Positions 14,210 through 53,928 of a stretch of DNA of 64,000 nt are shown piece after piece; position 1 is the stretch's first letter, and the number at the start of each line of letters is the position of its first letter. The notes beneath the pieces were generated by a model. The model made no database searches and was not told the DNA's origin. It saw only the letters and a list, made by a program, of their open reading frames with translations. The stretch lies in the NCBI RefSeq assembly GCF_028368995.1, contig NZ_JAQNDL010000002.1:673724-737723 (forward strand), given 5' to 3'. A program made the position numbers and the translations under genes. Source of the DNA: Nannocystis bainbridge (GTDB lineage: Bacteria > Myxococcota_A > Polyangia > Nannocystales > Nannocystaceae).

Positions 14210-14310
14210 ATTCACGACTATGACGGCGCCGGCCGGCCTGCCGCGAGCAGGTCGCGCCGGCGCGCGCATTTCGGGCCAGCCGGCGCGAGATCGGGTACCG
14301 TCCGCCCCCC

Positions 14311-15429: not shown

Positions 15430-15598
15430 GGCGCCGACCGTCGCGCGGCCCAGGCGCGGTTGCCATTTTGGCAAGCGGCCTCGGACGGCCTGACAATTGC
15501 GCGTGACAGACCCGTTCTGGCTCCAGGAGATGCCGTAGAATCATTCGTCTTTCGCCGGGGACCCTGAATTGCACACCGCGGCTTCGACTCGAGCGCCC

Positions 15599-17008
<1,410 letters not shown>

Positions 17009-20496: not shown

Positions 20497-20521
20497 AGCT
20501 ATCCTGAAGTCGGACACGCCC

Positions 20522-22363
<1,842 letters not shown>

Positions 22364-25881: not shown

Positions 25882-26603
25882 GCACCTTCGTTCCTGGCGC
25901 TTCGAACATGTCCTCGCGGACAGCCCGTCAACGCGGCCTGTCGCTGGTCGAGATCCTCGTCGCGGTGACGATGATGACGATGATGACCGCCTCGGTCTAC
26001 GCCAGCTTCAGCACCACCGCGCAGAGCATGCGCACCGCCGAGAAGACCCAGCAGAAGTACGCGGTGCTGCGCAACTGCCTGGCGCGCATGGGCACCGAGA
26101 TCTCGCTGGCGTACCTGTCGCACAACCGGCCGCCGGTCGAGGACCTGCACTTCACGCTGTTCGAGGGCCGCGACCAGTTCTACTCCGACAGCCTCACGTT
26201 CTCGGCGTTCGCCCACGTCCGCATGCGCAAGGACGCCAACGAGAGCGACCAGTCGGTGATCCAGTACTTCCTCTACAAGGACCCGAACGACGCCAACCGC
26301 ACCCACCTGTACAAGCGGGAGTCGCGGCGGCTGATGGGCGACCGCCCGGAGAAGATGGAGGAGTTCTTCCCGGCCTACGTGTTCTGCGAGGACATCAAGT
26401 CGTTCGACGTCAAGTACTGGGACGTGAAGCGCATCGAGTGGCGCGACGAGTGGCGGACGATGAAGCAGGACATGCAGCCCAACCGCCTGCCCGAGCGCGT
26501 CAAGATCACGCTCGGCGTGTGGGACGCGGACCTCGGCAAAGAGGTCAAGTACGTCACCCAGACCCTCATCCCGATGCAGGAGCGCATCGACTTCTCCCGC
26601 TGA
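25878..26603 (+). CDS. gspJ: minor pseudopilin (GspJ-like)
   Basis: ATGA overlap with gspI stop; RGLSLVEILVAVTMMTMM prepilin-type motif; an in-frame copy of the CATGTCC palindrome lies at codons 9-16 (NMSSRTA). Confidence 0.55.
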   Translation: MSTFVPGASNMSSRTARQRGLSLVEILVAVTMMTMMTASVYASFSTTAQSMRTAEKTQQKYAVLRNCLARMGTEISLAYLSHNRPPVEDLHFTLFEGRDQFYSDSLTFSAFAHVRMRKDANESDQSVIQYFLYKDPNDANRTHLYKRESRRLMGDRPEKMEEFFPAYVFCEDIKSFDVKYWDVKRIEWRDEWRTMKQDMQPNRLPERVKITLGVWDADLGKEVKYVTQTLIPMQERIDFSR

Positions 26604-31919: not shown

Positions 31920-31951
31920 ACGTCGTCAAAAAGCAGCTCTCGTGCCAATCG

Positions 31952-31983
31952 GGAACCTCTCTCAACCAAAAGAGAAAGGTTCC
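31952..31983 (+). terminator. putative intrinsic terminator hairpin downstream of gspN
   Basis: ggaacctctctc-aaccaaaa-gagaaaggttcc: 12-bp stem (one mismatch), 8-nt loop, 33 bp after gspN stop; no clear U-tract. Confidence 0.35.
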
Positions 31984-32081
31984 TGAGGGGGTCTGCGGGT
32001 TTGCGCCTGCGCGCAAAGTATGCATTACACCCGCGCATCTTCCGCCCGCAGAGTAGGCGAAGCCCCGCGGAGGTACCGCCT

Positions 32082-33500
32082 ATGACGAACTTTGAAGAGC
32101 CCAAGCCGACCCGAATTCTGGTGGTTGACGACGAGTCAAGCGCACGGTCTGCACTCAGCGAGCTGCTGCGCGAGGAAGGTTATGAAGTCCAGTCCGCCGC
32201 CGATGGTTACAAGGCGCTCGGACGCGTCGACCAGTGGGAGCCCGACGTCGTCATCACCGACGTCAAGATGCCCGGCCTCACTGGCCTCGAGCTCATAACC
32301 AAGCTCCGTGAAATCTACCCTGACGTCGCGGTCGTCGTGATGACGGCTTTTGGCTCGGTCGAGGGCGCCGTCGAGGCGCTCCACCTCGGCGCCGACGATT
32401 ACCTCGGCAAGCCGGTCGATCTGCCGCAGCTGCTGATCGGGCTGCAGCGGGTGCTGCGTCACCGGGCGCTGCAACGCGAGGCCCGGCAGCTGCGCTCGGC
32501 GCTGGCGAGTCAGCGCGCCGATATGCGCGCCGGCGTCATCGGCCAGTCGAAGGTGTTCCGCGACCTCCTCGGCCTGGCCCGCCAGGTCGCCGACTCGCCG
32601 GTGTCGGTGCTCGTCACCGGCGAACGCGGCACGGGCAAACAGCACCTCGCGCGCCTGATCCACCAGTGGAGCGGTCGCCGCGGCCCGTTCGTCAGTCTGC
32701 AGTGCAGCGGCTTCACCGACGAGGCGTGCGCCCGCGAGCTGTTCGGCGTGCGCGAAGGCGGAGCCGTGCTGCGCGAGGGCAGGCTGGTCGAGGCCGACGG
32801 CGGCACGCTCTTCCTCGCCGACGTCGACGAGCTGCCGGCAGGCGTGCAGGCGGCGCTGCTGCGCTTCCTGCAGGACCGCACGTTCTGCCGCGTCGGCGAC
32901 AGCGAGCCGCTGCAGGCCGATGTCCGCGTGATCGCGGCGACCAGTCAGGAGCTCGGCGCGGCCCGGGGCAGCAAGCTGCGCGAAGACCTGTACTACCGCC
33001 TCAACGTCGTCAGCCTGCGCATGGCGTCGCTGCGCGAGCGCCGGGACGACGTGCCGCTGCTGGCGATGTATTTCCTGCGGCAGTTTGCGGCCCAGGCCCA
33101 TCGCCCGGTGATCGGCTTCAGCGAGCGGGCGCTCGGCGTGCTGCTCGGCTGCGATTGGTCCGGCAACATCCGCCAGCTCGAGAACAGCGTCGAGCGAGCG
33201 GTGGTGCTGGCGCGCGGGGCGGAGATCGAGCCGCGCGACCTGCCGCGCGAGCTGATGTCGAAGATGCGTGGTGACGACGCGGCGCCGGTGATTCCGGGCG
33301 CGTCGCTGCGAGAGATCGAGCGCTACGCGATCCTGCGGACGCTCGAGCACGTCGGCGGCAGCACCAGCAAGGCGGCCAAGATCCTCGGGATCTCGCCGCG
33401 CAAGATCCAGTACCGCCTCAACGAGTACCGCGGCGCTCCGCAGACGGGGATGCCTCCCGCGCTGCCAGAACCGCACGCGCACCGCAGCGCGGTGAAGTAG
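32082..33500 (+). CDS. sigma-54-dependent response regulator (NtrC family)
   Basis: [14 protein letters not shown] receiver, GERGTGKQ Walker A, sigma-54 interaction domain, C-terminal HTH ([20 protein letters not shown]). Confidence 0.85.
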
Positions 33501-33666
33501 GCCCGCGGAACGTCGAACCACCGCGGGCGATCATGGTTCGCCGCGGTGGTCGGCTGGCTGAAGAGACAGGTTCGAATTTCACCGATCCGCCGCGCCCGCG
33601 CGCGTGGGACCGCGCCTGCGAGGGGGGTCGTGGCCGCGTGCTACCTTCGATCCGTCGGAGGGCGCG

Positions 33667-36066
33667 ATGAAAGAGATCGAGATACGGATCGGGCGCGGCG
33701 CCAGGGCTACGCGGTTCGCCGCGGTCCTGGTCAAATCGGGCAGCACGGCCACCCGCAGCTTCGAGCGGTCGCGCAGCGGGGCGGGCGTGCAGGTCCACCT
33801 CACCGGCGAGCGCGACTACCACGTGGCCCTCGTCGCCGAGCCCGCGGCGGCCGACAAGGCGCTGCTGCGCGCGACCGTCGGGCAGAAGCTCCTGCTCGAT
33901 TTCCCCGGGCGTCGGGCCGTCCGCCAGCGCCTCGCCGGCCTCGCGGGACATGGCCTTCAGGACAGGTCAGAGCCGAAGGCTGCGGCGCTCGACCTCACCG
34001 CTGGCATCCACGGCGCAGCCCCGCTGTTCCTCCTGAGCAGCGGCGAGCTGGCCGCGGACGCCGACGGACCTGCCCCGAAGGACATGTCGTCGCTGCCGGT
34101 GTTCGTCGCCGCCGCGCGCTGGATCTCGTCGCGGCGGACCTCGAGCTTCGAGTGCCTGTTCCCGCCGAGCGCGTTCTTCCCCGACGAGCCGCTGCGCACC
34201 GAGCGATTGACGCCGACGCAGGCCAGGGCGCTGCTGCGGCAGGTCGATGGCGTGTTGACGGAGGCCGCCGCGAGCGGGCCGAACGCGGCGGTCGACGACG
34301 CCGTGCAGCTGCGCTCGGCCGCGCTGACGGTGCTGTCGCACGTGGTCGCCACCGTGCTCAAGGATCCCGAATTCCGCGCGGCCGCCGACGCTGCGGCCGA
34401 ACGCATCTTCCGGCTGATCGACGAGGAGACCGGTCCTGGCGGACGCGGCGAGCTGCGGGCGCACGCCATCTCGCTGCTGTCGCTGCGCGGCCCGGCCCTG
34501 CGCCCCGAACAACAGGCGCGCGCGCAGGCGCTGCTGCGCTCGCTGTCGCGGCAGGCCCCGCCGTACGCCGCGCTGACCGGGCCGTGGCGGTTCGCGCTGG
34601 CCTCGGCGCCCGAGTTCTTCCCCGGCGAGGTCGAGCTGCTGCAGACCAAGTTCGGCTTCACCAAGGTGGCCGCGCCCGAGGGCACGCCCGCGTCGCCGAA
34701 CCCGTGGGGCGACGGCTACGTGGTCCTGCGGGCGCCGTTCGTCGGCAAGGGCGGGCGCGAGTTCATGGTGTTCGCCCGCTCGGCCGCGCCGCGCGACGAG
34801 AACTTCGAGATGTCGCAGGAGTTCTTCACCGGCCTGCTGGTCAGCCGCCACGCCAACCTCGGCGCCTACGACATGCGCGCGTCGGCGATCCAGACCCCGC
34901 AGGTCGGCTACAAGCTGATGATGAACTGCCAGTGCGCCGGGCTGACCACGCGGTTCGCCATCGCCCGCATGTTCCCCGACGCCGACATCTTCTCGAGCTG
35001 GGACTCGACCTACTTCCGCACCGGCGAGGGCGACAAGGTGGTGGCGTCCGAGGGCATCGACTGCTTCGTGGCGATCCTGCGCGGCCTCGCGGAGGAGGAG
35101 GACTTCGCCGCGATCGACCGGCGGATCCGCAAGGCCCAGTGGCACCACCGCCAGAGCCGCACGCCCGACTTCGTGCAGTTCATCGGCCCGGCCCACCCGC
35201 TGGTGGTGGCGCGTTACCAGGACATCAACCGCGACGGCAAGGCCGACTATTACGACGGCTTCCTCGACTTCCGGCTGGTCGAGATCGCCGAGAGCCTCAA
35301 GGACTCGGCGATCCCGCGCGACCCCGGGGCGTCGCCGTCGCAGATCGGCGGCGAGGCGGCGCGCGGGCTCGGGTGGGCCGCCGGCAGCCTCAATCGAGTC
35401 ACGCAGTACTCTGAACTTTGGGACAGCTTGCCCGGGCAGGCCGAGCTCCTGTACGCGTTCCGGGCCGGCGGCTTCTTCAGCGGCGCCGAACCACCGCGCG
35501 ACGTGCCGGCCGGCAAGGGCCCGCGCGGCGAGCTCGGGCGGCTGCCGGCGGTGGTCCGCTACGTGCGCGAGCCGGCCGGCGACGCGCTCACGGCCGACGT
35601 GCTGTTCCACAGCCACCTCAGCCACAGCGCGCAGGAGCTCAAGCGCCTGCTCGTGGCCGCCGAGGCGTGGTGGCGGGCGATCGACCTCGGCTACCTGGCC
35701 GACACCACGCCGCTCGACACGCCCCTGGGCCAGCGCGCCGGCCTGCTGCTGCTGCTCGCGGGGCTGCTCGAGTTCCCCGCTGATCAGAACTTCATCGACG
35801 GGCTGTGGGAGATGGCGCTCGACATGCTGCACCTGCCGCGGCTGTCCCGCTCGCTGATCCGCCGCTGCAACAGCGACGAGGACCACAATGACGGCAACTA
35901 CTACGGGTCGGTCCGCGGCATCCGCGAGCTGGTCGGCACGGCCGAGGCGCCCGGCGGGGTGCTCAAGCCGGCCAACCCCGAGGCGTACGAGGAGCTGGCC
36001 GCGGCCGATCCGGCGATCGGCCGCGCCCGCCCGCTCGGCGAGGTCGCCCAGGCCGCGGGGCCGTGA
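33667..36066 (+). CDS. large hypothetical protein (about 800 aa), no signal peptide
   Basis: Long ORF with coherent GC3 codon bias; start MKEIEIRIGRG at 33667; contains possible Cys/His motif NCQCAGLTTRFAIARMF ... WHHRQ; no confident domain assignment. Confidence 0.5.
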   Translation: MKEIEIRIGRGARATRFAAVLVKSGSTATRSFERSRSGAGVQVHLTGERDYHVALVAEPAAADKALLRATVGQKLLLDFPGRRAVRQRLAGLAGHGLQDRSEPKAAALDLTAGIHGAAPLFLLSSGELAADADGPAPKDMSSLPVFVAAARWISSRRTSSFECLFPPSAFFPDEPLRTERLTPTQARALLRQVDGVLTEAAASGPNAAVDDAVQLRSAALTVLSHVVATVLKDPEFRAAADAAAERIFRLIDEETGPGGRGELRAHAISLLSLRGPALRPEQQARAQALLRSLSRQAPPYAALTGPWRFALASAPEFFPGEVELLQTKFGFTKVAAPEGTPASPNPWGDGYVVLRAPFVGKGGREFMVFARSAAPRDENFEMSQEFFTGLLVSRHANLGAYDMRASAIQTPQVGYKLMMNCQCAGLTTRFAIARMFPDADIFSSWDSTYFRTGEGDKVVASEGIDCFVAILRGLAEEEDFAAIDRRIRKAQWHHRQSRTPDFVQFIGPAHPLVVARYQDINRDGKADYYDGFLDFRLVEIAESLKDSAIPRDPGASPSQIGGEAARGLGWAAGSLNRVTQYSELWDSLPGQAELLYAFRAGGFFSGAEPPRDVPAGKGPRGELGRLPAVVRYVREPAGDALTADVLFHSHLSHSAQELKRLLVAAEAWWRAIDLGYLADTTPLDTPLGQRAGLLLLLAGLLEFPADQNFIDGLWEMALDMLHLPRLSRSLIRRCNSDEDHNDGNYYGSVRGIRELVGTAEAPGGVLKPANPEAYEELAAADPAIGRARPLGEVAQAAGP

Positions 36067-36550: not shown

Positions 36551-36694
36551 TCTGTCTGTAAGGACATGCTCTTTCGAGCATGTCCCGCGGCCAGGGATCA
36601 GCCGGCCGAGCTGTCGTCTGGGTCTGTCCGTAAGGACATGCTCTTTCGAGCATGTCCACCGGCCAAGAAACAGCCGGCCGAGCGGTTTTTAAGT
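36551..36694. repeat. two direct copies of an about 72-bp repeat, each containing the perfect palindrome GGACATGCTC-TTTC-GAGCATGTCC
   Basis: tctgtctgtaaggacatgctctttcgagcatgtcccgcggccagggatcagccggccgagc vs tctgtccgtaaggacatgctctttcgagcatgtccaccggccaagaaacagccggccgagc; lies at convergent junction. Confidence 0.8.
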
Positions 36695-37775: not shown

Positions 37776-38642
37776 ATGCACAGCCGCAACGTCGAGATCA
37801 AGAGCCCCTGCCACGAGTCGTGGGACGCCATGCACGGCGACGAAGCGCGCCGCTTCTGCGATGTCTGCGCCAAGCACGTGCACAACCTCTCGGCGATGTC
37901 CCGGCAGGCCGCCACCGATCTCCTGACGGAGCACAAGGGCCAGCACCTGTGCGTCCGCTACTCGAACCAAGAGGACGGCCAGATCGCGTTCCGCGACACC
38001 GTTCCGCTGTCTCGCCTGCGTCCGGTGCGGACCGCCTTTGCAGCGATGATGCTGGCCGCCTGCGCCCCGCACGGCGACGGCCCGCCGATCCAGGACCTCG
38101 GCGACATCGCCATCGAGGCGATGGCCCGCGACGCCAGGCCGTCGCCCGAGGGCGGCTGCGAGGTCCAGACCGGGCCGTTCACGACGATGCACTTCCCCGC
38201 GAGCCACGAGGTGTGCCGCAACGTCGTCGACATCGGGGCCCAGATCCGTCCGCCCGTGGCGCCGCCGCCCGAGCCGCCGCCGCCGATGCCGACGATGGGC
38301 GCCGCGCCCGTGGCGATGGACCCGCCGCCGCCGCCGCCCGGTGAGGAGCTGATGGGCAAGGTGGCGCCGCCCGAGCACGTGAAGATGGGCGAGGCGACGC
38401 CCGACGCGAAGGAGCCGTGCGACCCGCAGGCCTTCGCCCCGCCGCCGCCGGACCCGCCGCCGTCGATGCTGATGGGCCAGGCGGTCGCCCCGGAAGCGCT
38501 CCAGCCGCCCGCGCCGCCGCCCCCCGCGGAGCCGCTGATGGGCGACGTGGTCGCCGACATCCCGCCGCCGCCGCCGCCGACCGCGAGGATGGGCCGGGTC
38601 GCTCCGAAGACCGGCAAGGTGAAGGTGCCCGCCGGACTCTGA
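37776..38642 (+). CDS. putative zinc-finger membrane protein with proline-rich repeat ectodomain
   Basis: N-terminus CHESW...RRFCDVCAKHVHNL (Cys/His cluster), predicted TM/anchor RTAFAAMMLAACAPHG, then five repeats of the form PPPPxPPxxLMGxVAP. Confidence 0.5.
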   Translation: MHSRNVEIKSPCHESWDAMHGDEARRFCDVCAKHVHNLSAMSRQAATDLLTEHKGQHLCVRYSNQEDGQIAFRDTVPLSRLRPVRTAFAAMMLAACAPHGDGPPIQDLGDIAIEAMARDARPSPEGGCEVQTGPFTTMHFPASHEVCRNVVDIGAQIRPPVAPPPEPPPPMPTMGAAPVAMDPPPPPPGEELMGKVAPPEHVKMGEATPDAKEPCDPQAFAPPPPDPPPSMLMGQAVAPEALQPPAPPPPAEPLMGDVVADIPPPPPPTARMGRVAPKTGKVKVPAGL

Positions 38643-38666
38643 GGTCGCGTCGCTGCGGGTGGGAAG

Positions 38667-38750
38667 GGCATGGCCTCGCGGCCATGCCCTTTCGTACATG
38701 TCCTCGAGGGCATGTTTTTATGGGCATGGCCTTTGGCTCATGCTTCGCCG
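38667..38750. repeat. array of 6 units of the 14-bp repeat
   Basis: ggcatggcctcgcg / gccatgccctttcg / tacatgtcctcgag / ggcatgtttttatg / ggcatggcctttgg / ctcatgcttcgccg. Confidence 0.85.
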
Positions 38751-38852: not shown

Positions 38853-38908
38853 GTCATGCCCTCACGGCCATGTCCTCAAAGACATGGCCGCAGCGACATG
38901 TCCTCACG
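38853..38908. repeat. array of 4 units of the 14-bp repeat overlapping the stop codon of the large minus-strand gene
   Basis: gtcatgccctcacg / gccatgtcctcaaa / gacatggccgcagc / gacatgtcctcacg; the last unit supplies the TGA (38904-38906, minus strand). Confidence 0.8.
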
Positions 38909-41900
38909 GACCGGTGGTGAAGTCCTCGCGGTTGCTGTCCCACCAGGCCTGCCAGGCGCGCAGCGCCAGGTCCCGGCTGCGGCGGTCGCCCTCGGCGGGG
39001 AACGGGATCCGCTGGCCGGTGATCCGCGCCAGCTCGTCGGCGGCCCACCGGCGCACGGCCTCGTCGCGGTGACGCAGGCCGTCGATGACCCACTCGATGC
39101 GCGGCTCCTGGCCGTGCTCGGCGTACCAGGCCCGCCAGCGCTGGGCGCGGTAGCCGTGGTGCTTGGCGGTGATCGAGCACAGCGCCTCGAGCGCGGCCTC
39201 GCGGACGTGCTTGTCGCGCACGGCCAGCAGGTCGATGAGGCGCGGCACGGCCAGGGTGTCGCGCAAGGTGCCGGCGGCCTCGACCGCGAGCAGCTGCCGG
39301 TCGTGGTCCTCGCTCTCGAGATCGCCGCGGATCTCCGCGGCCACGGCGGCGAAGTCGGGCACGCGGCTGTACGACTCGAGCACGCGGGTGGCGATCAGGC
39401 GCACGTCGGGGTCGGGGTCGAACGCCAGCTCGGCGAGCGGCCGCAGGCACCGCGGGTCGCGCAGCTCCTGGAACAGGAACGCGGCGTAGAAGCGGATCTG
39501 CGGCCGCACGCTGGCGAACAGCGCCAGCACGTGGGGGCTGACGGCGTGCCCGAGCTCGACGCAGGCGCGCAGCAGCGGGCCGTGGGCGCTCGGCGGCGGG
39601 AAGGTGGTCGCGTTGGCGAGGTCGATGGGGCCGGGGAAGCGCGCGGCGAGGCGAGCCAGGCCGCGCTCGTCGAGCGCCCGCAGGCGCGAGACGCTGGTCC
39701 ATTCGGCCGGGTTCTGCAGGAAGGCCTCGAGCACGGCGTCGATCTCGCGCTCGTCGAGCGCCGTCGTCGGGCCCGCTTCGGCCGGCCTGTCGGCGGGCGC
39801 CGCGTCGGTCGGCGGCGCGGCGGCTGCAGACGCGGTCGCGGCGGCCTCGGTCGCGTCGTCGCGGGGGGTGTCCTCCGCGACATGCCCTTCGGGACCGGTC
39901 TCGGAGGACATGTCCTCGGGGACATGACCGGAAGTGCTGGAGGAGGCGGCCGGGACGTCGTCGGCCTCGCGCACCAGCCGCGGCATGGTCAGGACGTCGG
40001 ACGAGGCCTCCGGGCGCGGCTCGTGCTTGGCGCGGCGCCGGCCGCTGCGCGGGCCGATCAGGGTGGTCGGCATCGACAGCGTCGGGCCGCCCTCGAGCTC
40101 GTCGGGGCCGCTGCGCCGGGCCATCGGGTGCGGCGTGGCGGTGAGGCCGCTCGAGCGCCGCAGCGTCTTCGGGATCACCAGCACCGGCTCCTCCGCGCTC
40201 GGCTCGGCGGGACGGCGGCGCCTCACGGCCCCGGGGGTGCCGGGCGGCGCGACGAGGTTGGGGATCAGCGGCCCGGATGCGCCCGGTTCGACCAGCGGCG
40301 GGATGTCGAGCACGGTCTTGGCGTCGGGCGCGGCGAGGCTCTCGACCAACAGCGGCGCGTGCGTCAGCGGCGGCGAGAGGTCGAGGATCGTCGGCGTGTC
40401 GGAGGCGGCGCGCGGCCAATCGTCGAACTCGGGGTCGGGCAGGCCGCCCCGCGCGGTCTCGTCGAGCATCACCCGCGGCGCGCCGGGCAGCGTCGAGGCC
40501 GGGTCGTGATCGACCCGGGCGTCGGCGGCGGACCGCAGCGCGCTGGCGACCGGCAGCGGATCCTCGATGCCCGAGGGCTCGGCGGTGGCGATCCAGCCGG
40601 GCATGTCGGCCCGGGCAGCCGCGGGCGGCCCGGAGGTGTCCGAACGACCATGTCCGAAGGTGCCTGGCCGATCGGTCAGGTCGATGGTGACGGTCGGGAC
40701 CGGCGGGCGCGTGAACATCGCCGCGAAGCGAGCCACGAGCGGGCTGTCGGGGCCGTTCTCGGGGCCGAGCGGCACCGGCACCGGCGCCAGGCCGAGGCCG
40801 GGGCCGTCGCGCCGCGGGGGCGGGCTGTCGGCCTCGTGATCGTCGGTGAGGTCTTCGTAGTCCTGCTCGTCCGCGCTCGGTTCGGGCTCGTCGGCGCTCG
40901 GCTGGGCCCGCACCACCGCGGAGCTCTCGGCGCGGACCGGCAGCGGGGTGACGGTCGACGGATCGTCGCGGCGGATCGGGTTCTTCAGGGTGATGATGCC
41001 GCGGCCACGGCTGCTGCTGCTGCTGCTGCTGCTGCCGCTGCTGCGCCCGCGCGAGCGGCTGGCCGCGCTGCTGCTGTCCCCGAAGCCAGGTTCATCGGTC
41101 AGCCGGGCGGGGCTAGGCGGCGGCTCGTCCGGAGTCTCCGGCGCTGCGGCGGCGACCGCGGGCTCGGGCTCGGGCTCCGGGATGTCCTCGGGGACAGGTG
41201 GCACGGCGGCCGGCGCGTCGGCCTCGTCTTCGCTGACGATCGGGTGCGGGCGGACGGACGGGCGCGCGCGGTCGGCTGCTCCGGCGCCGACGGTGCCGCC
41301 GGGCACCACCCAGCCGAGCAGACGCAGCAGGGCCTCGAGGCTCTGGCGGGCGGTGTCGCACAGCTCGCGCAGGACGGTGCGCTCGCGCGGATCGAAGGCG
41401 ACGCCGGCGCGGTCGACGTAGAGCATCAGGACCGTGCGACCGCCGGCGAGCACCGGCTCGAAGATGCAGGGGATCCCGAGCGGCTGGCCGACGGCGAACG
41501 ACAGGCTCGGCTCGATCAGGAGGTGCAGCGGGCCCTGGCCGGACACCGCGCGATCGAGCAGGCCGCCCTCGGGCAGCGGGATGACGAGGCCCTCGGACAG
41601 CCTGAGCGCGCTGCCGGGGGCCGCCAGCACGCGCAGGCCCTCGCGCTTGACGCCGAACAGGGCCACGCGCGGGGCGACCAGCGAGGCGGCCTTGACCAGC
41701 GCCTCGGTGATCCGGTCGCGCTCGCGCGCGGTCGCCAGCGCGGCCCGGGCGGCGTCGAGCCGCTGGGCCAGGGTCATGACCATCGCCTGCGGGAGGGCCG
41801 GGGGCTTCTTGGTCGAGGACTCGATCAACGCCTCGTCGGCGCCGACGACCGCGGCTTCGGAAGCGCTGGTCGAAGGGACAGGTGCGGCGTCCGCCGGCTC

Positions 41901-44123
41901 GTTGGATCTGGCCGAAGAGACAGGTAAGGCCGAGCCCGCCGGCGCGGGAGAGCTGGCCGAAGCGACAGGCGGAGCTTCTTCCAGCGCGGTGGAGCTGGTC
42001 GAAGAGACAGGTGAGGCCGAGCTCGCCGGTGCGGGAGAGCTGGTCGAAGAGACAGGCGGAGCGGCTTCCGACGGGCGAGTGGCGCTGTCGTTCGCGCCGG
42101 GAGCGAGGTTGTCGGGCGGCGTGGTGGCGGCGCCGACGGGGATGCCGACCAGGGTGCGGCGGTCCGCGAGACCGGAGGAGTCCCTCGCGCGGGGCGTGGG
42201 CCGGGTCGTGGGCGCCGGCGGGAGGATGATGAGCGGCGTATCGGGGGCGATCGCCATCCCGGCGAACGAGCCGCCGCCGTCGTCGAACCCACGCGGGGGA
42301 ACGAGCGGCGCGTCAGGGGCGACGGGCACGGGGTCGAAGCTCGACGGCCGGGTCGGCGACGGTTGCGGGGCGGGGTTCGCGGTGATGCTCGCCGAATCGG
42401 TCTCGGGCGCGCTGTCGTAGGCGGCCGTCTGACGGCTGGCAGCGGGGGTGGGGGCGGGGTCGTCGGTGAGGCTGTCCTCGAGGCCAGGCTGCTGCGCGTG
42501 CCGTGAGGCCCGGGCCGCGTCGGCTGCGAACGCCTCGGTGAGGGCGCTGGGCTCGCCCTTGTTCGCGGGGCGCGCGTCGGGGATGGTCGCGGCGGGCCTG
42601 TCCTCGGGGACAGCTGCGGCGAGGTCCGAGGACCTGTCCGGAGAGGCAGGTGCCGAACCCGACGGCTCGCCGGCCGCGGACGGCGAGGTCGCGGGGACAG
42701 GCTGAGGCAGATCGACCCGGGCCGTCGAGCCTTCGGCGGCAGGACGCGACGAATCGACGGAGATGTCCTCGGGGACAGGCGCGAGCGACTCGTCGCGCGC
42801 GGTCGCGCCGTTGCCGGCTCCGCGCAGCGAGCCCGCGTCCGCAGGGCGGGGCGAAGCGGCCGTCGCGGAACCACTGGTAGCAGGGCTCCCGGCGAGCCCG
42901 GAGGCGCGGGCGGCGGTGGTCGGACCGGACATCGCGGCCGGTCGGGGGCCGGCGTTTTGCCTGTCCGCGGGGACAGGTACGTCGGTCCCTCGCGCCTCGG
43001 TCAGCGGCGCCGCGGCGTCCTGGGTCGCGCCGAGCGCACGTGCATCGGCGGCGTCGCGCGGCCTGTCCGCTGGGACAGGCGCATCCGCGGCGCGGAGTTC
43101 GGGCGTCGCTCCGGCCGAGGTGTCGGCGGGGTTGTCCGCAAGGACAGGCGCTTCGGGCGAGGCGTCGGCGGGGCTGTCCGCAAGGACAGGCGCTTCGGGC
43201 GAGGCCTCGGCGGGGCTGTCCGCAAGGACAGGCGATTGGGCCGAGGCGTCGGCGGGGCTGTCCGCAAGGACAGGCGCCGTCGCCTCGTGAGCGTCGCGGG
43301 CCCCGGAGGCGTTCGCGGACTCGTCCGTCGCGCTCGCGTCGTCGGAGCCACCGATCTCACCCGGCGCGACCTCATCCTCGGCCATGTCCGAAGAGACAGG
43401 CCGCTCGTCGCTCGTCGACAAGTCGGGCGTCGCAGCCCCGGCGCCCGTCGAGCTGTCCGCGGGGACAGGTTCTCCGGCCGTCGGCGCATCGGCGACGGAC
43501 CGGACCGAAGAGCCAGGCGATTCGACGCCCGCCGGCTTGGCGGCGGCTGCGTCCCCGCGCTCGGCCTGCCTGTCCTCAAGGACATGTGCACTCGTCAGCT
43601 CGCTCGCCGGCCCGTGGGTGGGGACGAGGCTGATCGTGAGCGAGGAGGTGCGCATCGCCTCGAGATAGTCGAGCAGGATCAGCGCGTAGCGGGGCGCGAG
43701 GATCGAGCCGGTCCGCTCGGCCGCGATCTTGGCCAGGCAGCACTCGGGCGCGACCACCGGGTAGAAGCCGCGGACCATGCGATAAAGCTGGCCGAGCTTG
43801 GCGTCGGGCAGGTCGGGGTGGACGGCGACGATCAGGCGACCGTCCTCCTGCACGAGCGGCATGGCCCAGCCGATGTCGACCAGGTCGCGCGGGACGTGCT
43901 CCCACGGGCGGGCCGGCCCGCGCTCGAGCAGCCGCACCGGCGCGCCCGGGAGGCCGCACGCGCTCTGCAGCAGGTGATCGAGCTGCACCGGGGTCATCAG
44001 CCCGAGCTCGAGGATCGCGGTGTCGAGACTGCCGCCGGCTTGTTGCTGCCGCCGGGTCGCGGCCTCGAGATCGGCGCGCGACAGCGGACCGTTGGCTTCG
44101 AGGTGGCGCAGGAGGAGGCTCAC
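38904..44123 (-). CDS. large multidomain protein: N-terminal T2SS-E N-terminal (GspE-N/MshEN-like) domain, long acidic Pro/Ala/Ser-rich repeat region, C-terminal HEAT-like repeats
   Basis: GTG 44123 overlaps RDD stop as GTGA. N-terminal about 140 aa resemble the T2SSE_N fold. The centre is low complexity with 14-aa (42-nt) PVLADSPAEASPEA repeats and PVPED motifs. C-terminal HEAT-like repeats VREAALEALCSI, VRRWAADELARI. Opposite-strand ORFs inside are artifacts. Confidence 0.6.
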   Translation of the reverse strand: MSLLLRHLEANGPLSRADLEAATRRQQQAGGSLDTAILELGLMTPVQLDHLLQSACGLPGAPVRLLERGPARPWEHVPRDLVDIGWAMPLVQEDGRLIVAVHPDLPDAKLGQLYRMVRGFYPVVAPECCLAKIAAERTGSILAPRYALILLDYLEAMRTSSLTISLVPTHGPASELTSAHVLEDRQAERGDAAAAKPAGVESPGSSVRSVADAPTAGEPVPADSSTGAGAATPDLSTSDERPVSSDMAEDEVAPGEIGGSDDASATDESANASGARDAHEATAPVLADSPADASAQSPVLADSPAEASPEAPVLADSPADASPEAPVLADNPADTSAGATPELRAADAPVPADRPRDAADARALGATQDAAAPLTEARGTDVPVPADRQNAGPRPAAMSGPTTAARASGLAGSPATSGSATAASPRPADAGSLRGAGNGATARDESLAPVPEDISVDSSRPAAEGSTARVDLPQPVPATSPSAAGEPSGSAPASPDRSSDLAAAVPEDRPAATIPDARPANKGEPSALTEAFAADAARASRHAQQPGLEDSLTDDPAPTPAASRQTAAYDSAPETDSASITANPAPQPSPTRPSSFDPVPVAPDAPLVPPRGFDDGGGSFAGMAIAPDTPLIILPPAPTTRPTPRARDSSGLADRRTLVGIPVGAATTPPDNLAPGANDSATRPSEAAPPVSSTSSPAPASSASPVSSTSSTALEEAPPVASASSPAPAGSALPVSSARSNEPADAAPVPSTSASEAAVVGADEALIESSTKKPPALPQAMVMTLAQRLDAARAALATARERDRITEALVKAASLVAPRVALFGVKREGLRVLAAPGSALRLSEGLVIPLPEGGLLDRAVSGQGPLHLLIEPSLSFAVGQPLGIPCIFEPVLAGGRTVLMLYVDRAGVAFDPRERTVLRELCDTARQSLEALLRLLGWVVPGGTVGAGAADRARPSVRPHPIVSEDEADAPAAVPPVPEDIPEPEPEPAVAAAAPETPDEPPPSPARLTDEPGFGDSSSAASRSRGRSSGSSSSSSSSRGRGIITLKNPIRRDDPSTVTPLPVRAESSAVVRAQPSADEPEPSADEQDYEDLTDDHEADSPPPRRDGPGLGLAPVPVPLGPENGPDSPLVARFAAMFTRPPVPTVTIDLTDRPGTFGHGRSDTSGPPAAARADMPGWIATAEPSGIEDPLPVASALRSAADARVDHDPASTLPGAPRVMLDETARGGLPDPEFDDWPRAASDTPTILDLSPPLTHAPLLVESLAAPDAKTVLDIPPLVEPGASGPLIPNLVAPPGTPGAVRRRRPAEPSAEEPVLVIPKTLRRSSGLTATPHPMARRSGPDELEGGPTLSMPTTLIGPRSGRRRAKHEPRPEASSDVLTMPRLVREADDVPAASSSTSGHVPEDMSSETGPEGHVAEDTPRDDATEAAATASAAAAPPTDAAPADRPAEAGPTTALDEREIDAVLEAFLQNPAEWTSVSRLRALDERGLARLAARFPGPIDLANATTFPPPSAHGPLLRACVELGHAVSPHVLALFASVRPQIRFYAAFLFQELRDPRCLRPLAELAFDPDPDVRLIATRVLESYSRVPDFAAVAAEIRGDLESEDHDRQLLAVEAAGTLRDTLAVPRLIDLLAVRDKHVREAALEALCSITAKHHGYRAQRWRAWYAEHGQEPRIEWVIDGLRHRDEAVRRWAADELARITGQRIPFPAEGDRRSRDLALRAWQAWWDSNREDFTTGP

Positions 44124-44701
44124 TGTTCCCTCACGACGTAGGTGCCCGTCAGATAGTCGTGGAAGGCCCGCTTCTCGCGGTCGAAGACCATCCACAGCGA
44201 GCCGAGGCCGCCGGGCACCAGGCCGACGGCGGTGCCCGCGAATCGCACGGTGGCGCGCACCGGACCGACCTTGCCGCCGGCGCGGTGGACCACGCGGATG
44301 CCCGTGAGCTTCTGCCCGGGTGTCCTCCCGGACAGGGCGATGAACAGCACGAAGTAAATCGCGACCATCACCAGCAGGGGCGCGAGCCACACGAGGATCT
44401 CGAGCGGCTCGACGGTGAGGAGCTGCAACAGGCCGGCCCACGAGAAGCCGCCGCGCACCGGGCTCGCCTCGCCGAGCACGCGCTGCAGGCCGAGGTGCAG
44501 CGGGCCCGCGGTGACCAGCAAGATCGCGGCGTCGACCACCGCGGCGGCGAAGCGGCGCCAGAAGCCGGCGACGCGCACCGGCACCAGCGCTTGCCCGCAC
44601 GCGGGGCACGTCGGTCGCCCGTCATTGACGAGGCCGATGTCCAGCGCCGCGTCGCAGCTCGGACACGGGGCGGGGCGCTCCTTGCGAGACCAAAACGCCA
44701 T
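44120..44701 (-). CDS. RDD family membrane protein with N-terminal zinc-ribbon
   Basis: MAFWSRKERPAPCPSCDAAL...CPACGQ zinc ribbon; then RDD-type TM helices and conserved FDREKRAFHDYLTGTYVV C-terminus. Confidence 0.7.
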   Translation of the reverse strand: MAFWSRKERPAPCPSCDAALDIGLVNDGRPTCPACGQALVPVRVAGFWRRFAAAVVDAAILLVTAGPLHLGLQRVLGEASPVRGGFSWAGLLQLLTVEPLEILVWLAPLLVMVAIYFVLFIALSGRTPGQKLTGIRVVHRAGGKVGPVRATVRFAGTAVGLVPGGLGSLWMVFDREKRAFHDYLTGTYVVREQ

Positions 44702-44775: not shown

Positions 44776-45465
44776 TCAGGCGAACATGACGCGAGCGACA
44801 GCGACCAGCGCCGCCGTCTCGGTCCGCAGCGTGTAGGGCCCGAGGCCGATGGCGCGGAAGCCCGCTGCGCGCAGCAGCGCAGCCTCCTCGGGGGTAAAAC
44901 CACCCTCGGGTCCGACGCACACGCGCGCGCCCGTGACGGCCGCCGGCGCGTCGCTCGATGTCGCGCGCAATTCCTCCCACGCGAACACGCCCGGGAGGTC
45001 GGCGCGCCGGGCGGTGGCCTCGCGGAGATCGACGGGGCCCGAGATCGCGGGGGCTCGCGGCCTGCCGCACTGCCGCTGCGCCGCTCGCAACACCCGCGCG
45101 ATCCGTTCGCCGCCGGGCGCCGCGCCCTGACTGCGGGCGCAGCGGACCAGCACGACCTCGGCGACGCCGACCTCGCACAGCCCCGGCAGCAGGTCCAGCA
45201 CCGTGGCCGGCTCGGGCATGCCGAGCAAGACCACGATCTCGCGCGGCGGCGCCGGCACGGTTCGTTGCTCGAGCAACTTCACGGTGGTGCCGCGCGCGTC
45301 GCCGCCGACGACCTCGGCCAGCCACAGCGCGCCGTGGTCGTCGATCGCCTCGACGTGCGCGCCGTCGCCGACGCGGCGGACCCGGCGAAGGTAGTGCGAC
45401 TCGGCGGCGTCGAGGGCGACGCGCGCCGGATCGGCCGGCGCGCCGACGAACACGCGTGTGCTCAT
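44776..45465 (-). CDS. rsmE: 16S rRNA (uracil1498-N3)-methyltransferase RsmE
   Basis: MSTRVFVG...; C-terminal SPOUT motifs VCVGPEGGFTPEE, LGPYTLRTETAALVAVARV; ATGA overlap with prmA stop. Confidence 0.75.
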   Translation of the reverse strand: MSTRVFVGAPADPARVALDAAESHYLRRVRRVGDGAHVEAIDDHGALWLAEVVGGDARGTTVKLLEQRTVPAPPREIVVLLGMPEPATVLDLLPGLCEVGVAEVVLVRCARSQGAAPGGERIARVLRAAQRQCGRPRAPAISGPVDLREATARRADLPGVFAWEELRATSSDAPAAVTGARVCVGPEGGFTPEEAALLRAAGFRAIGLGPYTLRTETAALVAVARVMFA

Positions 45466-46430
45466 CCGGCGGCCCGCAGGACCAGCGCGCACCACTCGGC
45501 GAGGTCGCGGCGATCGATCAGGGTCAGGCCGGCGGCGGCGTAGGCCGCGAGCACTTCCTCGGCCTCTTCGCCGAGCACGCCGCTCAGGACCACGGCGCCG
45601 CCCGAGGCGAGGCGGCGCGCGACGTCGCCGGCGATCGGGATCAGCACGCCGGGGCGGATGTTGGCGAGGATCAGATCGAAGCCGCCCTCGAGCTCGAGCA
45701 CGGTGACGGCCCGGATCTCGAGCCGGTCCTCGAGCGCGTTCTCGGCGGCGTTCTCGGCGGTGGTGTCGGCCGCGTCGGGGTCGTTGTCGGCGGCGACCAC
45801 CGCGGCCTGCGGGAACAGCCGCGCCGCCGCGAGGGCGAGGATGCCGGAGCCGCAGCCGAGGTCGAGCACGCGGCTCGGGCGAGCGCCCGCCTCCGACAGC
45901 GCGACCAGCAGCTCGAGGCACAGCCGCGTGGTCTCGTGCTGGCCAGTGCCAAAGGCGCGGCCGGGGTCGAGGACCAACTCGAGCTCCGGGTCGCCGGGCC
46001 GACGATCGATCCACGACGGCCGCACCAGCAGCGTCGTCGTCGCGGCCGAGAACACCAGCGGCGCGTAGAACTGCTTCCACGTGTCGCGCCAGTCGTCGTC
46101 GGTGCGCACGGCCGGGGTCAGGCGCAGCGGCAGGTGCAGCTGCGCCGCGAGCCGCTCGACCTCGGTGACGAGGCCTTCGAGGCCGTCGGGCGTGGTGTAA
46201 ATGGTGAGCTCGGGGATCTCGCAGCGACTGCCGAGCGTCGAGGTGTCGCGCGTCTCGACCCCGGCGGCCCGCGGGTCCTCGGCGATGAGTGTCGCCAGCG
46301 CCTCGAGCCGCTCCGAAGCCTCCGCCACTTCGCCGAGCTCGATGCCCCCGGCGTCTTCGTCGGACCGGCCGCGGAGCTGGACCAAAAGCGTCGCCCACGG
46401 TTCGGCGGTCGTCTCTGCTGTCTCACGCAT
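45462..46430 (-). CDS. prmA: ribosomal protein L11 methyltransferase PrmA
   Basis: FGTGQHETTRLCLELL, VLDLGCGSGILALAA SAM motif, 322 aa. Confidence 0.8.
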   Translation of the reverse strand: MRETAETTAEPWATLLVQLRGRSDEDAGGIELGEVAEASERLEALATLIAEDPRAAGVETRDTSTLGSRCEIPELTIYTTPDGLEGLVTEVERLAAQLHLPLRLTPAVRTDDDWRDTWKQFYAPLVFSAATTTLLVRPSWIDRRPGDPELELVLDPGRAFGTGQHETTRLCLELLVALSEAGARPSRVLDLGCGSGILALAAARLFPQAAVVAADNDPDAADTTAENAAENALEDRLEIRAVTVLELEGGFDLILANIRPGVLIPIAGDVARRLASGGAVVLSGVLGEEAEEVLAAYAAAGLTLIDRRDLAEWCALVLRAAG

Positions 46431-48119: not shown

Positions 48120-48139
48120 CGGTTCCATATTAAAGAGAG

Positions 48140-48237
48140 GACATGTTCCGAGGGGCATGTCCTGGCGGGCATGTTCGAATGGGCATGTTTTATCAGCCAT
48201 GTCTTGAAGGGCATGCTTATTGCGACATGTTCCTCGC
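48140..48237. repeat. array of 7 units of the 14-bp repeat
   Basis: gacatgttccgagg / ggcatgtcctggcg / ggcatgttcgaatg / ggcatgttttatca / gccatgtcttgaag / ggcatgcttattgc / gacatgttcctcgc; starts 21 bp after meaB stop. Confidence 0.9.
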
Positions 48238-50061: not shown

Positions 50062-50160
50062 CGGGACATGTCCGGGAGAGCATGTCCGATGGGTCATGCT
50101 CTCGCGGACATGCACCGATGGACATGCCTGAGAGGACATGTCCGGAGCGACATGCCTCGC
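50062..50160. repeat. array of 7 units of the 14-bp repeat
   Basis: gacatgtccgggag / agcatgtccgatgg / gtcatgctctcgcg / gacatgcaccgatg / gacatgcctgagag / gacatgtccggagc / gacatgcctcgcta; fills convergent gap between DUF1963 gene and MATE gene. Confidence 0.9.
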
Positions 50161-50169
50161 TAGACGGCG

Positions 50170-51585
50170 TTACGCCGCCGTGCCGCGGCCGGTGAGGTCG
50201 ATGCGGCGCCAGGCGCCGGAGCGGAAGCGCAGCACCATCGCCGCCGCCAGCGCCACCATGTACACCACCATGCTCCACGTCGCGGCCGCGGCGCCGCCGT
50301 CCCAGGTGAACACGGTCAGCCAGGCCAGCGGCAGCCAGATCACCCAGGCGAGGGAGATCCGCAGCACCAGCGGCCAGGCGGTGTCGCCGGCGGCGCGCAG
50401 GGCCTCGTTCACGGTGATGACGGTGGCGTCGAGCAGCTGCCACACCGCGCTGATCGCCAGCAGCTGGGCCCCGAGCTCGACGACCGCGCGCGACGACTCG
50501 ACCTCGTCGCGCGCGAACACCATCATCAGCGGCACCGGGATGGCGAAGTAGAGCAGGCCGACCACGCCTTGCCAGGACGCCGCGACCGCGAAGGTGCGCA
50601 GCACGATCCGCGGCACGTGGTCGTGGTGGCCGGCGCCGATCGCCTGGCCGACCAGCACCGCGCCGGCCGAGCCGAGCCCGAACGCCGGCATGAACGAGAC
50701 CGAGTTGACGGCCGTCACCGCCATCAGCGCCGCGACCGCGACGGTCCCGAGCTCGGCGACCACGAGGTTGATGAAGATCAAAAAGGCGGCGAACTCGAGG
50801 AACCAGTTGAGGCCGTTGGGCAGGCCGAACCGCATCATCCGCGCGAACTCGCGGACGCCCAGGCGGCCGTCCTGTCTGTCCGAAAGGACAGGTACGGGGT
50901 GCTCGACGGGGCCGACGGTCGCGGGGTCGATGGTCCGCTGGTGGCGCGCGCGCCAGAACGCGTGGCAGCAGACGGCGAAGCCGGCGACGCTGGCGAGCAC
51001 GCTGGCCCACGCGGCGCCCTGGACCCCGAGCGCGGGGGCGCCGAGGTTGCCGTAGATCAGCACCCAGTTGAGGGCGAGGTTGACGACCATCGCCGTCAGG
51101 CTGGCGCGCATGGCCACCCGGGTGTCGCCGAGGCCGGCGAACCAGTTGCCGAGCGCCTCGGTGCCGACGACCACGCCGGTGCTGAGCATGCGGATCGCCA
51201 TGTACTCGCCCATCACCTCGCGCACCGCCGGCGCGTGGCCGGTGAGCGCGAGGACCGGCGCGATCGCGGGGATGATGGGCAGGGCGGCGAGCATCGCCAG
51301 GCCGGCCAGCGCCAGGCCGTACCAGGCGTAGCGGCGGGCGCTGGCGAGGTCGCCCTGACCGGCGAGCTGGGCCGCGTAGCTCTGGACGATGAACGTGATG
51401 CCCATCGGCAGGATGAGGATCCCGAGCGCGTTCATGGCCCCGGTGGTGGCCGCCGCGAGCGCGTCGTCGCCGAGCGGGGCGACCATCGCGGCGTCGCTGA
51501 AGCTGATCACCGACTGCGCCGAACGTGCGAGCACGATCGGCCAGGCGAGGGTGATGAGCGCGCGGAGTCCAGGGACCGGGGCCAT
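50170..51585 (-). CDS. MATE family efflux transporter
   Basis: Start MAPVPGLRALITLAWP (51585); 12 predicted TM segments, MATE N- and C-lobe pattern; upstream part of ORF 50170..52638 is an artifact overlapping pgi. Confidence 0.8.
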   Translation of the reverse strand: MAPVPGLRALITLAWPIVLARSAQSVISFSDAAMVAPLGDDALAAATTGAMNALGILILPMGITFIVQSYAAQLAGQGDLASARRYAWYGLALAGLAMLAALPIIPAIAPVLALTGHAPAVREVMGEYMAIRMLSTGVVVGTEALGNWFAGLGDTRVAMRASLTAMVVNLALNWVLIYGNLGAPALGVQGAAWASVLASVAGFAVCCHAFWRARHQRTIDPATVGPVEHPVPVLSDRQDGRLGVREFARMMRFGLPNGLNWFLEFAAFLIFINLVVAELGTVAVAALMAVTAVNSVSFMPAFGLGSAGAVLVGQAIGAGHHDHVPRIVLRTFAVAASWQGVVGLLYFAIPVPLMMVFARDEVESSRAVVELGAQLLAISAVWQLLDATVITVNEALRAAGDTAWPLVLRISLAWVIWLPLAWLTVFTWDGGAAAATWSMVVYMVALAAAMVLRFRSGAWRRIDLTGRGTAA

Positions 51586-53830: not shown

Positions 53831-53914
53831 TACATGTCCTTTGGAGAATGTTCCAAGGGACATGTCTGCGAGGACATGGTGGAAAGAGCATGCTCAAAAG
53901 AGCATGTCCTCGGG
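53831..53914. repeat. array of 6 units of the 14-bp repeat
   Basis: tacatgtcctttgg / agaatgttccaagg / gacatgtctgcgag / gacatggtggaaag / agcatgctcaaaag / agcatgtcctcggg; directly downstream of UDPGP gene stop. Confidence 0.9.
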
Positions 53915-53928
53915 TGAGTCGTGGACGA

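Follow-up and report, generated by a model that had tools for sequence, protein, structure and literature searches.

A giant gene on the minus strand of Nannocystis bainbridge DNA is described here, within a 64,000-nucleotide stretch (contig NZ_JAQNDL010000002.1, positions 673,724 to 737,723; about 71% G+C) that is called the window below. It encodes a protein of 1739 amino acids (aa) made up, in this order, of an N-terminal domain with the MshEN/GSPII fold, a 620-aa acidic linker, a GAF fold, a 519-aa linker and HEAT repeats. Its start overlaps the end of a gene for a small membrane protein of the RDD family, and copies of a short palindrome, TGTCC-N4-GGACA, are read in frame within its linkers. 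The gene pair and the domains are the following:

38904..44123, minus strand: giant MshEN-like/GAF/HEAT gene, GTG start at 44123, stop codon 38904-38906, 1739 aa
43644..44123, minus strand: MshEN/GSPII-fold domain, aa 1-160, from profile, AlphaFold (AF2) model and Foldseek; degenerate motifs for c-di-GMP (cyclic dimeric GMP)
41784..43643, minus strand: first intrinsically disordered region (IDR1), aa 161-780, Ala/Pro/Ser/Asp-rich, net charge -47, hypervariable
41289..41783, minus strand: central GAF-fold domain, aa 781-945, from conserved block, AF2 model and Foldseek
39732..41288, minus strand: second disordered region (IDR2), aa 946-1464, Pro/Ala/Ser/Asp/Arg-rich, net charge -37, with semi-conserved short motifs and a poly-Ser run
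38907..39731, minus strand: C-terminal HEAT/alphaRep-like domain, aa 1465-1739, from Pfam and profile, ending in a Trp-rich helix (W..WW)
44120..44701, minus strand: RDD-family membrane protein, 193 aa, Pfam RDD 3e-24, true start ATG at 44701

Anatomy of the giant protein and its RDD partner

An earlier note, made from the sequence alone, had given an open reading frame (ORF) of about 1739 aa at 38904-44123. Coordinates and length are the same here, and an identical protein is present in NCBI (WP_272087794.1 / MDC0719283.1, Nannocystis bainbridge) under the name 'hypothetical protein'; its UniRef name is GspE N-terminal domain-containing protein. The longest possible minus-strand ORF runs from 44609 to 38904. 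We take 44123 as the true start because all homologs begin at MSLL(L/R)…, as does the 1739-aa protein, and because the stretch beyond 44123 overlaps the RDD gene in another frame. Codon position 3 is the highest in GC across the entire gene (0.81-0.87 for the linkers, 0.93-0.99 for the folded domains), and 8 Nannocystis assemblies keep the gene as one ORF (1673-1840 aa) in which the three conserved domains are all present, so a chimeric or collapsed ORF is very unlikely. The protein is, as far as can be judged from its sequence, cytoplasmic, with no signal peptide or transmembrane segment evident. A replication origin at the GC-skew minimum around 30-36 kb was considered and rejected; the skew in the giant gene follows its Pro/Ala-rich coding strand.

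An alignment of 24 homologs delimits three conserved blocks (aa 1-160, 781-945 and 1465-1739), and conservation falls to 0.06-0.39 in IDR1. The disordered core of about 1000 aa that had been described before is thus disordered as stated, but it is not a single block: two linkers are parted by the GAF domain at aa 781-945, which the earlier note overlooked. Hydrophobic residues make up 13-18% of the linkers. Identity to the N. punicea ortholog is 95% in the folded domains, 51% in IDR1 and 71% in IDR2.

The N-terminal domain had been compared with that of the ATPases of the type II secretion system (T2SS) and type IV pili (T4P), and both the family profile and the predicted fold match MshEN/GSPII. 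Pfam MshEN/T2SSE_N (PF05157) has no match at E<=1 in the giant protein and NCBIfam gives only sub-threshold MshE/PilB hints for the whole protein, the model 'c-di-GMP_motif, MshE-related' reaching 19.6 bits against a cutoff of 38 (E=5.7e-4), and the assignment therefore rests on the family profile and the structure model. A profile of 12 N-domain sequences matched in PDB the Thermus PilF GSPII domain (5.6e-8), PilB N-domains and Vibrio MshE (0.003). The AF2 model (predicted local distance difference test score, pLDDT, 92.5) has the two subdomains of the MshEN fold, an N-terminal four-helix bundle and a C-terminal alpha/beta subdomain, and its best 19 Foldseek PDB matches are all MshE, PilB-N, PilF GSPII-A/B or XpsE-N (E 1.7e-6 to 8e-4). 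Homology is also supported transitively, since 39 of 47 distant N-domain relatives pass PF05157 in addition to the PDB profile match. No ATPase follows the N-domain, as had been said: the T2SSE ATPase domain (PF00437) has no match in the giant protein, and it is present in one of the 47 distant relatives. Recent paralogy with the N-domain of the GspE encoded in the window was rejected (BLASTP E=8.9). Compared with MshE, PilB, PilF and XpsE/GspE, the giant protein has the same two-subdomain fold in the same N-terminal position and the same 24+5+24 motif spacing; it differs from them in having no T2SSE ATPase, in replaced c-di-GMP contacts (SLD for RLG) and in scoring below the Pfam and NCBIfam thresholds, and it is nearest to PilF GSPII-A.

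In MshEN domains the site for c-di-GMP is a pair of motifs of 24 residues each, RLGxxhhxxGhhxxxxLxxxLxxQ, with a linker of 5 residues between them (PMC5013675; PMC12002112). When the motifs of the giant protein are anchored on the conserved glycines G12 and G41, Leu (L3 and L5) occupies the Arg and Gly positions of motif I (aa 3-26), and in motif II (aa 32-55) R-L-G is replaced by S32-L33-D34 and Gln by A55; the 5-residue spacer between them is preserved. All members of the close family have GGSLDT, which also predominates in the wider one, and neither motif fits even the relaxed pattern, [RKPN]hG…, with which Wang et al. 2016 searched (PMC5013675). The closest sequence match of the N-domain, PilF GSPII-A (GGSLA vs GGSLDT here), is a non-binding domain with comparable substitutions (PMC12002112). 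In a domain engineered to bind, binding is lost again when Ser is put back in place of the motif II Arg, and a change from Gly to Ala weakens the affinity for c-di-GMP (PMC12002112), and XpsE has lost binding via similar changes (PMC5013675). Because the Arg, Gly and Gln contact residues are replaced across motifs I and II, canonical c-di-GMP binding by this domain appears unlikely.

The central domain is weak at the sequence level (Pfam GAF E=0.079, 13.9 bits against a threshold of 22.4), and since a PDB search with the profile of this block gave nothing meaningful, the GAF call was settled by the fold search. Its AF2 model (pLDDT 85.8) has the central antiparallel sheet and flanking helices of a GAF fold and more than 100 Foldseek matches at E<=1e-3; all 50 among the matches listed contain GAF domains (template modeling score, TM, about 0.6-0.67), phytochrome GAF, Lcd1, PtsP and PDE among them. 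The C-terminal HEAT repeats recognized before are borne out by Pfam, with HEAT_2 at 2e-9 and 38 bits (cutoff 27.7), HEAT at 27.5 (23.5) and Arm at 25.4 (20.6), and by a profile match in PDB to alphaRep at 6.5e-29; in the family alignment this domain has 74 invariant columns. DUF4388 (PF14332), which the earlier note had suggested as a check, has no match at E<=1 in the giant protein and is carried by 4 of the 47 distant N-domain relatives.

The RDD protein carries an N-terminal zinc ribbon, CPxCD...CPxC. Its stop codon overlaps the start of the giant gene as GTGA and a Shine-Dalgarno-like element, GAGGGA, lies just upstream, in accordance with the translational coupling that had been proposed. 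Gene context at the family loci was counted by tblastn with the proteins of the window. An RDD gene lies directly upstream on the same strand in all 51 loci with enough upstream DNA, mostly with a junction of 0-4 nucleotides (nt), and gene calls give a 4-nt overlap in every locus examined individually (L001-L004 and L078-L080). The zinc ribbon is present in 54 of the 65 RDD partners examined and was undetected in those of Kofleriaceae and Haliangium. The partner is a clear member of the RDD family (PF06271), proteins of which have been reported to work as an antiporter (PMC5996927) and to associate with the SppA protease and inhibit it (PMC7568657); a binding site within the membrane that faces the cytoplasm has also been proposed (PMC12419801). 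It differs from other RDD proteins in its N-terminal zinc ribbon and in its coupling to what would be a large cytoplasmic scaffold.

The earlier note did not recognize this architecture, which proves not to be a one-off. A search with the N-domain profile among 1.84 billion representatives returned 2098 relatives, 41 of them at E<1e-30, and the N-GAF-HEAT layout recurs in dozens of 50%-identity clusters with lengths of 634-1936 aa. Scanning one genome per GTDB species, we found 73 genome loci in Nannocystaceae (Paraliomyxa, Enhygromyxa, Plesiocystis and many metagenome-assembled genomes, MAGs), Kofleriaceae and Haliangium. The family proteins usually measure about 800-1100 aa (median 966 aa). 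Ten distant relatives, from MAGs, bear only the cluster names 'hypothetical' or 'HEAT repeat protein'; a homolog search with a diverse family alignment was dominated by low-complexity words and gave 4 matches. The MshEN-GAF-HEAT proteins are a conserved, uncharacterized myxobacterial family. Among the proteins P0085-P0170 there are also two-module relatives, N-GAF (about 400 aa) and N-HEAT (about 430 aa), which suggests a modular assembly of the family.

Myxococcus xanthus has 17-22 MshEN fusion proteins per genome, mostly uncharacterized (PMC5013675; PMC8844925), and a 2016 list of what is fused to MshEN names REC, HD-GYP, CheA/CheX, cyclase and kinase (PMC5013675). In such non-ATPase fusions of myxobacteria MshEN is a modular N-terminal domain joined to signaling domains, as it is here. 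Unlike for these known fusions, our literature search found no description of the MshEN-GAF-HEAT architecture, of MshEN combined with HEAT or of the obligatory RDD partnership.

A palindrome in the linkers and in intergenic arrays

The repeats of the giant gene and the intergenic arrays, as placed by Tandem Repeats Finder (TRF) where copy numbers are given, are:

43107..43277, minus strand: 42-nt (14-aa, PVLADSPAEASPEA) tandem repeat, 4.1 copies, TRF score 286, 92% matches
41858..42069, minus strand: Ser/Pro/Ala-rich repeats of 45 nt (4.6 copies) and 87 nt (1.9 copies, 88% matches)
39869..39926, minus strand: four-unit coding array of 14-nt period, aa about 1400-1418, HVPEDMSSETGPEGHVAEDT, 4.1 copies, same unit as the intergenic arrays
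38855..38911: palindromic array of 14-nt period over the giant-gene stop codon (TRF), a strong 3' hairpin
about 1760-1800, 36560-36660 and 38665-38715: intergenic arrays of 14-nt period, unit about CATGKCC-N4-GGMC
48139-48200, 50064-50170 and 53850-53920: further intergenic arrays of the same unit

Both tandem repeat families noticed before, about four copies of 42 nt and a set of about 45 nt, are thus located, and each 42-nt unit opens with the palindrome (43133, 43175, 43217 and 43259). The window contains TGTCC-N4-GGACA at 22 sites where 0.02 would be expected, and 12 of these copies lie within the giant gene. All giant-gene palindromes are read as xxT GTC Cnn nnG GAC Ann, that is [P/A/H/S]-V-x-x-D-[S/R/M/I/T/N], and IDR1 holds 11 of the 14 in-frame palindrome motifs. 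Six orthologs of the Nannocystis clade contain 50 exact copies, 49 of them in the same frame, and each gene of this clade, in which the linkers are roughly doubled in length, has 7-14 in-frame palindromes. In 75 loci of other genera, 819 kb altogether, the palindrome does not occur. The HV..DM motif of the coding 14-nt array, within which a GGACATGTCC junction lies at 39906, is retained in other Nannocystis species.

To separate peptide from nucleotide we defined sites by the peptide PVxxD[SR], independently of the DNA motif, and examined their codons. Pro is encoded by CCT in 42/45 sites against a background of 8% (P = 2e-42), Ser by AGY in 39/39 against 44% (P = 2e-14), Arg by AGR in 5/6 against 4%, and Val by GTC in 44/45 against 70%. 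The residue before Val varies between P, A, H and S, always with T as the third base (CCT, GCT, CAT, TCT). Four palindromes are positionally conserved between the window and N. punicea, with arms kept and loops diverged; at a decayed site, where PVPADR has become PIPADR, CCT GTC..GAC AGG has changed to CCG ATC..GAC CGG. Within the genus Nannocystis individual sites have been gained, lost and decayed, and the linkers of orthologs outside the Nannocystis clade are unalignable. The fixed synonymous codons, the fixed third-base T, the reversion of codons upon decay and the existence of non-coding copies point to constraint on the nucleic acid. We conclude, with high confidence, that the palindrome is constrained at the nucleotide and not the peptide level; the uniform frame suggests that this translation alone is tolerated or favored. 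The palindrome loops show no consistent bias to GNRA or UNCG tetraloops on either strand. In autocorrelation lag 42 is the highest in IDR1, while lag 14 is no higher in the linkers than in the folded domains; with no 14-nt periodicity detectable over their full length, we do not claim that the linkers arose in their entirety from such arrays.

Inside and outside the giant gene the palindrome keeps the same geometry. For spacings of 0-30 nt between TGTCC and GGACA there are in the window 22 cases of N4, three of N18 (4+14) and one of N23, the others being empty, and in the reverse order, GGACA-Nx-TGTCC, x takes the values 0, 14 and 28, so that the sites fall on a lattice of 14 nt. Spacings of 14, 28 and 42 nt are common to the giant-gene copies and the intergenic arrays, just as the earlier note had claimed. 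With relaxed matching the window has 33 copies, with intergenic arrays at no fewer than seven sites, that is at least seven. The array over the giant-gene stop codon folds as RNA with -47 kcal/mol (z = -4.8), an equivalent array lies just downstream of the ortholog in L078, and the intergenic arrays fold better than shuffled sequences (z -4.7 to -7.4). Rfam at its gathering threshold matches no family anywhere in the window. The junctions of the intergenic arrays form a 10-bp palindrome, GGACATGTCC, and the arrays stand mostly just after stop codons.

The palindrome was also observed, in another frame, at two start codons, at 25908-25925 in a pseudopilin gene (ATG TCC TCG CGG ACA GCC, MSSRTA) and at 6598-6615 in a 364-aa ORF (ATG GCC GAA GGG ACA GCC, MAEGTA), a hint that it may be tolerated, or have a role, where translation starts. 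The RDD gene contains it at 44321-44334 in the conserved LSGRTPGQ, read as L-S-G-R(AGG)-T with the rare AGG codon for Arg, and an exact palindrome is likewise present in the RDD gene of N. punicea (L002:9790).

Repetitive extragenic palindromic sequences (REP) and bacterial interspersed mosaic elements (BIME) are extragenic palindromes, and Rickettsia palindromic elements (RPE) are inserted in frame within genes. Within the window the Nannocystis palindrome is REP-like, with many dispersed copies and with intergenic arrays that fold into hairpins. With REP/BIME it has in common that the palindromes are short, dispersed and imperfect and form hairpin arrays after genes, and with RPE that copies within ORFs are read through in frame and add peptide segments. 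Unlike in either, the unit has a length of just 14 bp, a loop that is strictly N4 and a tandem period of 14 nt, and the in-gene copies are concentrated in the disordered linkers of one gene. Our literature search gave nothing relevant on a TGTCC/GGACA palindrome family in myxobacteria or Nannocystis.

Neighboring genes and rival explanations

Upstream of the RDD gene and on the other side of the giant gene lie:

44776..45465, minus strand: rsmE, 16S rRNA methyltransferase (PUA_4 and Methyltrans_RNA), start coordinate approximate
45462..46430, minus strand: prmA, ribosomal protein L11 methyltransferase, Pfam PrmA 2e-53
about 18-30 kb, plus strand: gsp cluster with GspD, GspE, GspF, pseudopilins, GspK and a PilM-like protein
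20480-22363: the true GspE of the window

The gene coordinates on the minus strand agree with the order prmA, rsmE, RDD, giant gene that was proposed from the sequence. Among the family loci rsmE is adjacent in 47/50 and prmA in 48/50. The gsp cluster adjoins the family gene only in Nannocystis, namely in the window and in N. punicea (L002); it is absent at L001, L003, L004 and L078-L080, and orthologs without it have ATP synthase or an FHA-ABC transporter as neighbors. In the window the cluster is flanked by two enhancer-binding proteins of REC-sigma54-HTH_8 type (15539-17008 and 31920-33500, plus strand). Upstream of it, between an acyl-CoA dehydrogenase gene and a sigma-54 activator, an ORF at 14224-15429 (plus strand) has a weak match to N6/N4 DNA methylases (5.6e-7). 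Two neighboring ORFs with high GC3 (GC content at codon position 3) have no Pfam match (33604-36066 and 37776-38642, plus strand); the latter is proline-rich with PPPPP runs, is convergent with the giant gene and has an unannotated equivalent in N. punicea.

The gene context bears on two explanations of what the protein does. The earlier note had seen in it a scaffold or adaptor for T2SS or T4P, and an adaptor, polar scaffold or decoy whose ATPase-less MshEN domain docks on platform proteins of the GspL/PilM type would suit the N-domains of XpsE and PilB, which mediate XpsL and PilZ binding and whose structures are among the top fold matches; at a distance of 9-26 kb there is a complete gsp cluster that includes a PilM-like gene, an arrangement kept in N. 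punicea. But this linkage is limited to Nannocystis and is missing around the six other orthologs named above, the giant gene stands on the opposite strand in a separate operon, similarity to the local GspE N-domain is not significant, and the invariant partner, in 51/51 loci, is RDD and not a secretion component, so we regard such a role as unlikely. A function linked to the ribosome or translation, suggested by co-orientation with prmA and rsmE, draws on their upstream presence in 48/50 and 47/50 loci across families about 30% identical, with outer flanks that differ. Against it, rsmE and RDD are separated by a gap of 70-400 nt, because of which the RDD/large-gene pair could have its own promoter, prmA and rsmE are not nearby in L027 and L073, an insertion lies between in L029, and the large protein has no translation-specific domain; this explanation seems improbable to us. 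The same judgment falls on the other function once proposed, a c-di-GMP effector in which MshEN binds the nucleotide and switches the scaffold. The fold, the sub-threshold NCBIfam match (E=5.7e-4), the kept 5-residue spacer and the known c-di-GMP receptors in which MshEN is fused to many output domains (PMC5013675) speak for it, and yet both motifs have lost their key Arg and Gly residues (L/L in motif I, S/D and a final Ala in motif II) and fail even the relaxed motif, c-di-GMP is not bound by XpsE and PilF GSPII-A, whose substitutions are comparable, a reconstructed domain no longer binds once Ser stands in place of the motif II Arg, and the NCBIfam score is 19.6 bits where 38 are needed.

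As regards the repeats, PVxxD[S/R] could be a short linear peptide motif, the palindrome being a by-product of duplication from one ancestral copy. The single frame of 49/50 copies, the location of several of them within clear tandem repeats and the presence of the motif in all Nannocystis-clade orthologs would be expected from it, whereas other observations are difficult to reconcile with it: the amino acid changes where the synonymous position does not, TCN is never used for Ser and AGG is almost always used for Arg, a site that keeps the peptide without the palindrome reverts to CCG/CGG, intergenic arrays and start codons carry the identical palindrome, as does the RDD gene in another frame, and the clusters of copies belong to IDR1 in the window and to IDR2 in L001. 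We therefore attach little probability to a peptide motif. Least probable, and close to negligible, is an assembly artefact or a chimeric ORF from repeat collapse, the outcome by which the earlier note would have given up its claim. The DNA of the giant gene is indeed rich in repeats, and the ortholog is split or truncated within IDR2 in some assemblies (L079, for example; P0023 and P0024 are truncated), but 8 independent assemblies of Nannocystis, some with contigs of 12-13 Mb, have one ORF with the same three domains in the same order, the coding signal is unbroken and the architecture is identical family-wide. In the Nannocystis sp. MAG just mentioned (L079:10001-14303) the ortholog consists of a 1109-aa N-GAF ORF and a separate 304-aa HEAT ORF; either the second linker is really broken here, or a frameshift error has arisen in the repeat DNA.

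A proposed tethered scaffold with repeat-bearing linkers

The overall picture that we favor, in which our confidence is evenly divided, is that of a signaling scaffold tethered by an RDD protein, the linkers of which host a REP-like palindromic repeat. Confidence in the anatomy and in the RDD coupling is high, and it is lower for the specific roles of the modules. The RDD protein would be a membrane anchor or sensor, in Nannocystaceae with a cytoplasmic CPxC zinc ribbon, and the large protein its cytoplasmic scaffold. As the Arg, Gly and Gln contacts are replaced across motifs I and II, the MshEN-like domain would be a module for docking on proteins, in the manner of XpsE-XpsL or PilB-PilZ, rather than a canonical c-di-GMP receptor. 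The GAF domain may sense a ligand or dimerize, the HEAT solenoid may bind a client, and the disordered linkers would act as spacers that set the reach. The palindrome would be a structural or selfish repeat of REP-like kind, tolerated in one frame by a linker under low constraint, and it may promote turnover of linker repeats such as the 42-nt (3 x 14) tandem repeat.

A bolder proposal goes further than this scaffold, and we hold it possible but doubtful: the linkers may be dual-coded, with a Nannocystis-specific 14-bp palindrome kept in the ORF by selection on nucleic acid, the PVxxD[S/R] peptide as its passenger and the element as a driver of length variation in the scaffold. The palindromes would then be candidate sites for a DNA- or RNA-binding factor, or messenger RNA hairpins that tune decay or translation.

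Several points weigh against the scaffold and its repeat-bearing linkers as we have drawn them. The link between the RDD and the large protein is a matter of gene order alone, the GAF and HEAT calls are silent on ligand and client, and the conserved prmA-rsmE neighborhood might mean a role related to translation. A different nucleotide could be the ligand of the N-domain, or c-di-GMP could be bound in a way other than the canonical one. In-gene palindromes partly share descent by tandem duplication, and since such copies are related the binomial P-values overstate their independence; their single frame also fits some selection at the peptide level. They account for about 200 nt of an excess of about 2.3 kb over the family median and so do not by themselves explain the expansion of the linkers. 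No RAYT/Y1 transposase (REP-associated tyrosine transposase) was noticed in the 64-kb window, where no search was aimed at one, and no palindrome-binding protein was identified.

The domains and the MshEN fusions as such were already known, and the most surprising element is the in-frame palindromes under nucleotide-level constraint. For the biology of myxobacteria, which possess many orphan MshEN-domain proteins, one family is now defined together with an obligatory RDD membrane partner, and both the RDD domain and the branch of MshEN not devoted to c-di-GMP gain a concrete, testable pair of partners. The giant gene is an unusually clean case of constraint at the nucleotide level overriding codon usage in an ORF, and it bears on how repeat elements build and reshape disordered regions and on the annotation of giant ORFs rich in repeats. 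Dual coding, if true, would mean that bacteria can carry a family of functional cis-elements in frame within a protein gene, which goes beyond the precedent of the selfish palindromic elements of Rickettsia.

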